Positions 9,363-59,870 of a stretch of 64,000 bases of DNA are shown here, in pieces. A program made the translations under genes and the position numbers. Source of the stretch: Eledone cirrhosa (Eukaryota); assembly GCA_964016885.1 (NCBI GenBank), contig OZ024740.1, positions 183,024,001 to 183,088,000 on the forward strand, read 5' to 3'. The notes under the pieces are model-generated. The model was not told where the DNA came from. It saw only the letters and a list, made by a program, of their open reading frames with translations, and made no database searches. The first letter of the stretch is position 1. Each line of letters opens with the position of its first letter.

Positions 9363-10106
9363 ACAATATATTGAGAAACACACAGATACATGCGGACACA
9401 CACATATACATGAATATATCCACATCCATCCTTGAGTTAATGGTGCCAACCTTAACCGATGTTGCTCTATGAATAACTGGGACAAACCAATCCGAATAGA
9501 TTAGACTGAACCAGTATCAGAGCTAAAAGTACATTATGAAGAGAGAAGAAACATTTAGATATAATTAGTAATAAGATGTATCATACCTAAACTGCTTCTA
9601 GATTCCTCGACTACGTAGTTTCGTGGCATAATCAAAACCAATACATCATAGAGATATAGAGCTTTTGCGAGGTCTGCCGACGTATCAAGGGGATACCTCG
9701 TTTTACTAGCCTCAAGAACATGTCTATATGATGTGAGATAGAATCCCAAAAGGCGGAGGAGGAGTCAGTCACCTGATACAACGGCCAAGAAACAGAGCTA
9801 AGCCCCTTATAACTCCGAAAAAATACCACGGAGGCGGAGGGGGTATTTATATCGAAGCCGTAGAAGAGGTGGTTAAGGGGACGAGAAGTATGAGTAATGG
9901 CAGCTTTTCCAGCAGTCACTACACTTCAAAGATTACTCGACAAGAGGGAGTTATAAACAATATATTGAGAAACACATAGATACATGCGGACACACACATA
10001 TACATGAATATATCCACATCCATCCTTGAGTTAATGGTGCCAACCTTAACCGATGTTGCTCTATGAATAACTGGGATAAAACAATCCGAATGGATTAGAC
10101 TGAACC
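9363..10106 (-). mobile_element. Retrozyme-like non-coding unit, 594-nt period, about 1.25 copies
   Basis: Direct repeats 9363-9512 and 9957-10106. Minus strand carries GAA-ACTACGTAGT-C-gaggaatc (HHR 3' half, 9601-9622) and a TTGTCGAG motif at 9936-9943; 3' end in (TA)n. Confidence 0.65.
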
Positions 10107-10965
10107 GACTAAACTGGCAACCCTACCAGGGTTTCTTGGTGAGGAGGATGACTTTGGACATCCTGCAGGACTAAAAACAAAACCTGTCAAAGGGCAAATA
10201 AGCTCTTAAGAGTCAATGGCCATCCAAAATCACCGGGAGAGATGACCCCTTAGCCTTTGTCAAGGCAGAAGTCTAGGAGAAGGAAAACTCTGATATAACA
10301 CCTGCAAACCTGATGGTATCCAATGATGTTGACTTGTTCTTCGTTTTGGTAAATATCATCTTGGTTAAGAGAGTGGGACTGGCTTTGTGCACTGCCTTTG
10401 CTCACTATAAAAGCTTCACGGCACAGGCATTGCTTTATATCTGGAGATCTCTCTGCAAATGTCGTCACATGGTACCATAGACCCAGCACTATGTGTCAAT
10501 AATTGTGACAAGTGTAGTGTTTGTACCAGAGTTTTCAAGTCGCTGGCTGGACTAAAAAGTCACACTCGTTCAGCTCTTCGGTAGGGGTTCTCCTTCATGG
10601 ATATAAAGTAGTGGACGTACTCGAAAACGAGTTGGCAGCCACCATATATGTATATATATTTATATATATATGTATATATATATATGTATATATATATGTA
10701 TGTATATATATGTATGTATGTATATATGTATATAAAAGCTTCACGGCACAGGCATTGCTTTATATCTGGAGATCTCTCTGCTCTTGTCACATGTTACCAT
10801 AGGCCCAGCACTATGTGTAAATAATTGTCACAAATGTAGTGTTAGTACCAGAGTTTTCAAGTCGCTGGCTGGACTAAAAAGTCACACTCGTTCAGCGCAT
10901 CGGTAGGAGTTCTCCTACATGGATATAAAGTAGTGGCCGTACTCGAAAACGAGTTGGCAGCCACC
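10106..10965 (+). mobile_element. Non-autonomous RTE derivative (5'UTR plus zinc-finger/3' tail) with a tandem partial second copy at 10733-10965
   Basis: Homologous to the 15340-15560 5'UTR. Encodes [20 protein letters not shown] like the 18950-19020 finger; tail GTACTCGAAAACGAGTTGGCAGCCACC(AT)n. Confidence 0.8.
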
Positions 10966-11136
10966 ATATATGTATGTATGTATATATATAAGTATATATA
11001 TATATGTATGTATGTATTTATATATGTATATATATATATATATTTATGTATGTATGTATATATATATATGTATGTATGTATATATATATGTATATATATA
11101 TATATATATATATATATATATATATATATATATATA

Positions 11137-58799: not shown

Positions 58800-59035
58800 A
58801 CTTTACAAAACCACCTGCCTCTTTGAGGTCGAATACCAACCCTACTACCATCTACAAACTGACCAATGAGAATCAAGACTATTCCTGCTGACAACATTAA
58901 TTTATTCCTAACAAGCTCATATGTGCCAAGGCTCTGATACCATCAACACTATAAACACAGAGCTGGCATATCTAAGAACTGACTAACTCCCTAATGAGGT
59001 CATAACCATTCAATGGCTATCATCGAAATATATAT
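58800..59035 (+). mobile_element. Second copy of the 33.9-kb HHR element, ending in its TA stem III
   Basis: Homologous to the reverse complement of 33890-34125; CTAATGA (mutated)..GAAATATATA. Confidence 0.8.
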
Positions 59036-59040
59036 ATATA

Positions 59041-59870
59041 TACAATATAATTGAATAAACAAGAAAGATGAACACTAATATAAACATACATGTGTTCGAA
59101 TCGTAAGGACCAAATATAGGTATGTTATTTTTCTTTATTTTTCTTAATTTAATAATTAAACTTAAGGATAACAAACTATATTGCTGTAGTTAGTATTTTT
59201 TCACCCGAGCAAATTTGGTCGTTACGATTCGGAGACATGTATGTTTATATTAGTGTTCATCTTTCTTGTTTATTCAATTATATTGTACAGCTCGGAAAAG
59301 CTTTTTTCTTAGAGCTATTTAATTGTAAAAGACTACCCTGAGTTCTTAACTCAATATATATTTGTCGGCTCCATCATGTAGAGCTAATTTTTATTGTCTT
59401 GACAGCCAGGCTGCTATTTTTAGCGGCAGGGAATTTCGAGACAAGCTGGGTTACGAATGACACGTGCGATAATTAATATCGTACATAATTCATTCTCTAA
59501 TATTTTTAGAAGTGAAAGGATCACTAATTTCTCAACAACTACTGATGAGCAGAGAAACGTGAGAACTTCACTTAATAAGTCGTTGCGGAACAGTCTCCAA
59601 CACTGTCTAGTTGTTACCAGGAATTTTTGCCCTATAAAGCTATGCTATTTTTCTTAATTTAATATTTAAAGTTAAGGATAACAAACCATATTGCTGTAGT
59701 TAGTATTTTTTCACCCTAACAAATTGGCTCCTTACGCTTCGAACACATGTATGTTTATATTAGTGTTCATCTTTCTTGTTTATTCAATTATATTGTACGG
59801 CTCAGAAAAGCTTTTTTCTTAGAGCTATTTAATTGTAAGAGACTACCCTCAGTTCTTAACTCAATATATA
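59041..59870 (+). mobile_element. Retrozyme-like element: 510-nt period, about 1.45 copies, 75-bp 5' inversion, (TA)n 3' end
   Basis: Direct repeats 59136-59360 and 59646-59870; 59041-59115 is the reverse complement of 59213-59287; HHR at 59534-59615. Confidence 0.85.
59534..59615 (+). ncRNA. Type I hammerhead ribozyme (GUC site at 59607; A13G variant)
   Basis: Stem I AACAACTA/TAGTTGTT; CTGATGA; stem II GCAG/TTGC; GGA-ACAGT ctccaac ACTGT-C. Confidence 0.85.

Follow-up and report, generated by a model that had tools for sequence, protein, structure and literature searches.

What are the four non-coding, (TA)n-flanked loci that recur between positions 9363 and 59870 of a 64,000-nt stretch of the Eledone cirrhosa genome (assembly GCA_964016885.1, contig OZ024740.1, positions 183,024,001 to 183,088,000, forward strand; hereafter the window), and how did they arrive there? 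The initial annotation, made from the letters alone, described them as several families of retrozyme-like units carrying hammerhead ribozymes and copied by the machinery of Penelope-like elements (PLEs). Non-LTR (long terminal repeat) retrozymes are tandem non-coding repeats of type I hammerheads, for which circular RNAs have been demonstrated in coral, mussel and axolotl and for which PLEs have been proposed as the partner (PMC7229834). The analysis presented here indicates that the four loci are in all probability dispersed non-coding hammerhead repeats of this kind, likely copied into (TA)n by a PLE reverse transcriptase (RT) and GIY-YIG nuclease, and probably from a circular monomer RNA. 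The narrower statement that the units are non-autonomous cargo of PLEs is held with high confidence.

The repeats, located in the window by masked self-BLAST, define four dispersed non-coding families, designated A to D, with circularly permuted monomers of 521-594 nt and a G+C content of 31-41%. A first search of the 3.0-Gb genome returned 2665 (A), 933 (B), 2536 (C) and 1893 (D) candidates, which are not copy numbers. Forty candidates of each search were scored. Extra searches with 70-80-nt pieces close to the 3′ ends of A, B and D, designed to lessen the bias toward long copies, provided what are termed length-unbiased loci below. Once overlaps and duplicates had been merged, 159 independent insertions were available for examination (A 45, B 41, C 22 and D 51); the merging was cautious, and a small number of separate insertions may have been fused by it. 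The top copies are 96-99.6% identical to their consensus, family C being the youngest. Families B and D are distantly related (72% in the end region), and relatives of 65-87% identity were met by chance in flanking DNA. The copies are spread over many contigs with unrelated flanks and, at 22-51 independent insertions per family, the monomers are neither single-copy nor local tandem duplications. Family C insertions were also observed in each unit of a tandem segmental duplication with a period of ~12.5 kb (G000:C1 ~349.32-349.39 Mb; L101-L103 and L116-L118).

Each family consensus contains exactly one complete type I hammerhead when the descriptor permits long helices and the U3-A8 core, and all four hammerheads sit on the strand whose 3′ end is fixed. 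An initial descriptor restricted to short helices missed those of A, B and C. Helix II spans 59 nt in A, 90 nt in B, 49 nt in C and 38 nt in D, and helix III of B extends over 65 nt. The real descriptor score was reached by none of 200 Markov shuffles in each family; the bare CTGANGA box, with 37 matches over both strands of the window, is not above chance. Of 191 hammerhead copies, 163 retain the full set of 11 core bases (A 57/62, B 39/44, C 39/40, D 28/45). The anatomy of the window loci is as follows.

9363..10106, minus strand: family A copy, a 594-nt monomer plus ~150 nt of the preceding turn; 5′-truncated; the 3′ end is the downstream start site, in (TA)n.
9601..9696, minus strand: family A hammerhead, type I, with U3-A8 core, 59-nt helix II and palindromic helix III; predicted cut after 9609; A9 substituted in this copy.
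9363..9529, minus strand: family A tail, ~167 nt separating the two fixed 3′ start sites (edges approximate).
36249..37017, minus strand: family B copy, a cut-to-cut monomer (36428-37017) plus 177-179 nt; the 3′ end is the upstream start site, in (TA)n.
36419..36602, minus strand: family B hammerhead, type I, with U3-A8 core, helix II of 90 nt with U.U at the base, helix III of 65 nt and helix I of 8 bp; predicted cut after 36427; G5 substituted in this copy.
44660..45181, minus strand: family C main arm, a single 522-nt turn; the 3′ end is the upstream start site, in (TA)n.
44710..44791, minus strand: family C hammerhead, type I, with a C3-G8 core that is intact in this copy, a 49-nt helix II whose base is a conserved C.A, and palindromic helix III; predicted cut after 44716.
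45181..45420, plus strand: family C inverted arm, 240 nt, head-to-head with the main arm; it begins within helix II, spans the monomer junction and ends, after a 125-nt tail (45296-45420), at the downstream start site, in (TA)n.
59041..59114, minus strand: family D inverted arm, 74 nt; the 3′ end is the upstream start site, in (TA)n.
59110..59871, plus strand: family D main arm, ~1.5 turns with a 510-nt period in the window copy (consensus 521); a ~78-nt tail, then the downstream start site in (TA)n.
59533..59616, plus strand: family D hammerhead, type I, with 38-nt helix II and 15-nt helix III; predicted cut after 59607; A13 substituted in this copy.

The four loci lie where the initial annotation had placed them, the inverted segments it saw at two of them are present in C (240 nt) and D (74 nt), and its description of the loci as free of open reading frames (ORFs) is correct, the longest stop-to-stop frame on the circular monomers being 66-76 residues on either strand. 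Its monomer lengths stand for A (594 nt), B (~590 nt) and the window copy of D (510 nt, against 521 nt in the consensus); the turn of C is 522 nt rather than ~527 nt, five bases aligning into the TA flank. In B the turn is 590 nt in the window copy and the step in genomic arrays is 591 nt. The hammerhead described as only partial at 9.6 kb is complete, with a U3-A8 core. One hammerhead per turn applies to every family consensus, but three of the four window copies carry a core substitution (A9 in A, G5 in B, A13 in D), and only the C copy at 44.7 kb is intact. Likewise, 3′ ends do lie in (TA)n, but each family has two alternative ends instead of one.

The hammerheads are further supported by covariation, between families and in diverged relatives. 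Families D and B, which are related, exchange C3-G8 for U3-A8. In relatives of 65-76% identity, compensatory changes are found in helices I and II: D helix I is swapped for a different paired sequence with one mismatch (L243); B helix I carries two double changes while the U.U base of helix II becomes G-C (L276); and the two strands of C helix II co-vary, with the C.A base and helix III unchanged (L054 and L029). A family B site at consensus position 196, offered by the short-helix descriptor, was rejected, the long-helix fold with its covariation being found instead. Rfam reported no hammerhead among the listed 150 of 356 window matches, in which (TA)n dominates, nor among 40 matches in nine cut-out loci that include copies from all four families. 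Hammerheads with long helices (insertions of 40-90 nt) show, as far as sequence can tell, the signs of staying under selection and escaping Rfam, and surveys of retrozymes therefore likely undercount them. Within the helix II insertion of family C, consensus position 417 is a three-allele site that often differs between the arms or turns of one insertion, the window copy included; it is either hypermutable or a sign of mixed templates.

The ends of the insertions provide the link to PLEs. The counts exclude arms that fall below 88% identity to the consensus or reach the edge of a locus. Among 270 non-edge arms, 220 terminate at one of the two fixed 3′ sites of their family. These start sites are AU-rich, lie 61-172 nt apart and are situated away from the ribozyme cut. 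(TA)n adjoins 194 of the 220 site-ended arms, compared with a background of 11% of window positions. The 5′ ends are variable, and arm length ranges from 0.06 to 5.2 turns, most arms being shorter than two. The cut site is crossed by 151/220 arms; two or more cut sites, up to five, are crossed by 30/220 (5/75 in the length-unbiased loci). The 159 independent insertions include 97 head-to-head arm pairs. In 62 of these both ends are at a site, and the two sites are opposite in 60; in the remaining 35 pairs at least one end lies outside both sites. Seventeen of the 60 opposite-site pairs consist of arms that each extend beyond the other, which argues that these arms are not fold-back copies and that both were primed on RNA. 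Fold-back self-priming as the sole source of inverted arms is thus ruled out for 17 pairs and could account for the other 43. The 5′ ends are no more than 15 nt from each other in 14/60 pairs. Arm junctions mostly show 1-8 nt of overlap, and a target-site duplication is unreadable within (TA)n.

Partial tandems, inverted arms, a one-sided tail of 30-40 bp and a (TA)n bias are features of PLEs (Craig et al. 2021, PMC8557442; Arkhipova et al. 2013, PMC3846280), and the tail is as long as the spacing of two internal RT start sites (Frangieh et al. 2024, PMC11167929). The present units share with endonuclease-bearing (EN+) PLEs of the Hydra and Neptune clades, and with non-autonomous Chlamys-type forms such as MRC1, the partial tandems, the inverted and 5′-truncated adjacent arm, the optional tail at one end only, the (TA)n bias and the multicopy head-to-tail non-autonomous organization (PMC8557442, PMC3846280). 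They differ in lacking an ORF, in their longer tail (61-172 nt) and in showing no terminal similarity to the sampled autonomous families. As in Poseidon of Anolis, there are two internal start sites whose spacing equals the tail, both target strands appear to be cut and extended, and the target is AT-rich (PMC11167929). In contrast to Poseidon, for which start-site use is reported as equal between strands in vitro and the start sites as AC-rich and not homologous to the target, the start sites here are short AU-rich tracts and are used in the opposite-site pattern described above.

A route that would generate these structures begins with transcription of copies exceeding one turn. Successive hammerheads are predicted to excise the monomer, which would be ligated into a circle. 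The PLE nuclease would nick (TA)n, and the RT would start inside the RNA at one of the two fixed sites, far from the ribozyme cut. By reading on past the junction of the monomer and through the ribozyme site, over distances that vary, the RT would produce the 5′-truncated, circularly permuted partial tandems that are observed. Where both target strands prime, synthesis would begin at the upstream site for one and at the downstream site for the other, on RNA from a single donor lineage; head-to-head joining of the resulting complementary DNAs would give the observed arm pairs.

The window also contains two stretches of PLE coding sequence outside the units.

451..2255, minus strand: PLE RT with C-terminal GIY-YIG, frameshifted, Neptune-like by motifs.
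34520..35704, minus strand: PLE RT of the Hydra clade, truncated, with a hammerhead-bearing terminal repeat at 33890-34125.

The initial annotation was right about the presence of PLE RT and GIY-YIG machinery, but no sequence in common with the monomers is detectable in these window PLEs, so their relation to the units is co-occurrence only. The genome holds PLEs with intact long ORFs; one group shows the defining Hydra-clade motifs RWK, DKT and CxCX5C, and others are Neptune-like by linker and nuclease motifs, as assigned by motif and not by tree. Both kinds end in (TA)n and bear hammerhead motifs, with the U3-A8 core in several Neptune-like elements, and one Hydra locus, read by eye, has a tail on one arm only. 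Pfam missed the PLE ORFs; in the Atlas, two of them group with HTH_animal and GIY-YIG clusters. With regard to the window elements themselves, the frameshifted Neptune-like PLE occupies 37-2979, is flanked by inverted terminal repeats and has many near-identical genomic relatives, some with open frames of 1100-1218 residues. The Hydra-clade terminal repeat is found at 33890-34125 (complete hammerhead at 33935) and again at 58800-59036, the latter adjoining the D locus across a short TA tract. Two near-identical two-armed insertions at 41370-42005 and 43849-44484, within a local duplication of ~2.5 kb, match a Neptune-like PLE 3′ end and have a U3-A8 hammerhead core.

Since the units have every terminal feature of PLEs, they might be nothing other than 5′-truncated ends (pseudo-LTRs) of long coding PLEs, and genomic PLE terminal repeats are indeed similar in size (507 nt in L175) and hammerhead-bearing, some with U3-A8. 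We consider this very improbable: the monomer is followed by itself for up to five turns with no ORF, upstream DNA is common to none of the 35 arms that border on non-TA, non-element DNA at the 5′ end, and PLE protein matches near 120 monomer loci occur at varying distances and on either strand. For the copies examined, the pseudo-LTR explanation, which the initial annotation had named as a way in which it could fail, is largely refuted. A further argument has two edges. Across 54 PLE-containing loci, 35 more loci and 14 terminal regions aligned with shuffle controls, no autonomous PLE was seen to carry a homologous terminal repeat; this sample of Hydra- and Neptune-like families covers a small part of tens of thousands of PLE candidates. 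Terminal-region matches with z > 3 were low-complexity only and were discarded. The absence of such a repeat from the sample speaks against the units being the ends of the sampled PLEs, and it also counts against PLE cargo. Little credence is likewise given to SINE-like (short interspersed element) units moved by an APE-type LINE (long interspersed element), or to satellites spread by DNA-level duplication. LINE ORFs with APE and RT are present in the window, and a long B array has signs of local duplication; yet ARAGORN finds no tRNA genes in the window, the monomer loci contain no tRNA match, nor the tRNA-like head of tRNA-derived SINEs, poly(A) is absent, the 3′ ends lie inside a circular unit at two fixed sites, the arms pair by opposite sites in the pattern of a PLE tail, and the copies are dispersed over many contigs between unrelated flanks. 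A plant LTR retrozyme was rejected, the hammerheads being type I and not type III and the length of the redundancy varying from copy to copy; the PBS and PPT that such elements also carry were given no separate search.

The nature of the template is more finely balanced. About nine in ten passes read through the cut site (15 stops in ~187 passes); stops there being only mildly raised, linear cut monomers alone cannot be the template unless the RT jumps, and the read-through is compatible with a ligated circle and with an uncut multimer alike. We lean, by a narrow preference, toward the circle as the main template. The same non-autonomous PLE cargo could instead have been copied from a linear uncut multimer made by a few donor arrays, or from linear monomers joined by template jumps, with a hammerhead that cuts rarely or acts elsewhere and circles that are not an intermediate; this we judge unlikely, while several observations agree with it. 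In vitro, the anole PLE used uncut RNA as the dominant substrate, and its hammerhead mutants inserted normally, so that the ribozyme was dispensable (PMC11167929). The majority of arms are shorter than two turns. The 5′ ends are in mild excess at the cut site (15 stops in 3546 nt versus 198 in 87321 nt; ratio 1.9, p 0.02), as would fit some linear template, although the interval was chosen after examples had been seen and the excess is not significant in the length-unbiased loci (p 0.26). The window B copy begins exactly there, its first base being the base after the predicted cut, where TA microhomology is present too. Moreover, certain alleles differ between the turns or arms of one insertion.

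On the other side, there is no pile-up of 5′ ends such as a fixed transcription start would give, and compensatory change maintains the hammerhead helices across 25-35% divergence. Four variants are common to all turns of a 3.9-turn family C array, and the read-through is explained by a ligated circle, though equally by uncut RNA. Subfamily alleles are shared within one insertion in 69/114 comparisons of turns and 76/106 of arms, where ~16 and ~17 would be expected if they were independent. This sharing is clearest in family A, and the other families show many disagreements (20/32 in B, 30/73 in D and 9/19 at two scored sites in C). In a 5-turn family B array (L070, G000:C1714:162201-165240), the variants alternate between turns with a two-unit period, which points to local duplication or a dimer template. 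These disagreements and the alternating array, together with the cut-site excess and the in vitro behaviour of the anole PLE, weigh against a circular template excised by the hammerhead, and further observations do so as well. Core positions of D are conserved among copies no better than the remainder (0.042 vs 0.040); fold prediction places the active fold 2.2-7.6 kcal/mol above the minimum of the circle, with a weak helix II base in B; and eight of nine Xenopus retrozyme dimers are reported to have failed to cleave (bioRxiv 10.64898/2026.07.22.740005). The circles fold at z -2.6 to -3.7 compared with 20 shuffles. No signature of adenosine-to-inosine editing was detected, A>G not exceeding T>C (244 in 33117 vs 333 in 44722, p 0.93). 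Among the sequencing runs listed as containing family C sequence, none was identified as RNA, and three of unspecified kind, all from one study, have shares of 0.41-0.48.

The window and the sampled loci contain other elements of related interest. An uninterrupted 928-residue APE-RT LINE frame is located at 11138-13924, with more APE-RT LINE remains at 16-18 kb and 21-30 kb. Among named relatives, the closest to one of the window LINE proteins comes from Argonauta hians (54% identity). A fifth family is represented by short TA-flanked fragments at 38336-38448, 40196-40314, 42278-42396, 48098-48231 and 49027-49160, with a type I hammerhead, a helix II of ~30 nt and a palindromic helix III; the descriptor finds four complete motifs among them. 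At 3455-3560, a near-perfect inverted pair gives a type I hammerhead-like fold at 3515, which may be a palindrome artefact. Outside the window, an unrelated 476-nt unit forms four near-identical head-to-tail repeats in (TA)n (L173 654-2636; G000:C4 near 94.99 Mb), in which the descriptor identifies no hammerhead, and a related unit is present in L144; this is possibly a family of ribozyme-free PLE cargo.

Comparison with the metazoan non-LTR retrozymes described by Cervera and de la Pena (2020, PMC7229834) reveals the same non-coding character, low G+C content, head-to-tail arrangement, single type I hammerhead per unit and co-existing PLEs. The U.U at the base of helix II in family B has a counterpart in axolotl HHR_Amex2 of the same study. 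The differences reside in the monomers, from ~150-170 up to ~450 nt there and 521-594 nt here, in the 38-90-nt helix II, in the (TA)n target and in the mostly dispersed insertions of 0.1-1.9 turns with inverted arms; circles and cleavage were demonstrated there and are predicted here. Vertebrate retrozymes were described as non-autonomous PLEs tied to PLE terminal repeats, with units of 51-972 bp (Li, Clavereau and Pollet, bioRxiv 10.64898/2026.07.22.740005), and the octopus units agree with them in proposed nature and fall within that size range. For Xenopus, 24 of 57 families were linked to transposable elements by homology, nearly all of them PLEs, a connection not found for the present families among the PLEs sampled. 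The 35 species listed in that preprint comprise vertebrates, insects and one coral but no mollusc, and the parts of it considered here contain no analysis of insertion ends, tails or arm pairing. The hammerheads of PLEs (Cervera and de la Pena 2014, PMC4209133) offer precedents for U3-A8 covariation (in Schistosoma), palindromic helix III, enlarged helix II and, in fungal PLEs, large helix III. Their helix II is given as 6-8 bp, in contrast to the 38-90-nt insertions here and to family B, in which helices II and III are long together.

In the giant squid genome, 235 Rfam hammerhead matches were counted, with nothing further on such elements (PMC6962438). Our literature search found no description of hammerhead, retrozyme or PLE elements of this type for octopus or cephalopods, although the supplement of PMC7229834 may list cephalopods, and it found no paper joining twin priming with PLEs. 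The novelty that the initial annotation left unverified is consequently partial: a cephalopod description was not found, but retrozymes as non-autonomous PLEs are already in print. It is well supported that the four are new retrozyme families, and they are best classed as non-autonomous PLE cargo; they may already sit in Repbase or Dfam under a Penelope or unknown label. The class itself and every feature taken singly are already published. New here are the long-helix form of the hammerhead, the length of the tails and the rule, quantified in this analysis, that paired arms use opposite sites.

The integration of PLEs and the role of their hammerheads are still open questions, and ORF-free units of half a kilobase reduce the substrate to its cis signals, namely a ribozyme and, on either side of a structured tail, two start sites. 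They also supply a countable rule that can be tested with purified PLE protein: opposite arms correspond to opposite start sites, and the arms overlap while neither need contain the other. A more far-reaching scenario, which we offer tentatively and regard as doubtful in its entirety, is that the RNAs are circles, that a dimeric PLE enzyme primes both nicked strands, each at its own fixed site, and that long-helix hammerheads invisible to Rfam hide thousands of cephalopod retrozymes. If it is true, asymmetric two-primer integration by PLEs would be directly recorded in the genome by the 60/62 rule.

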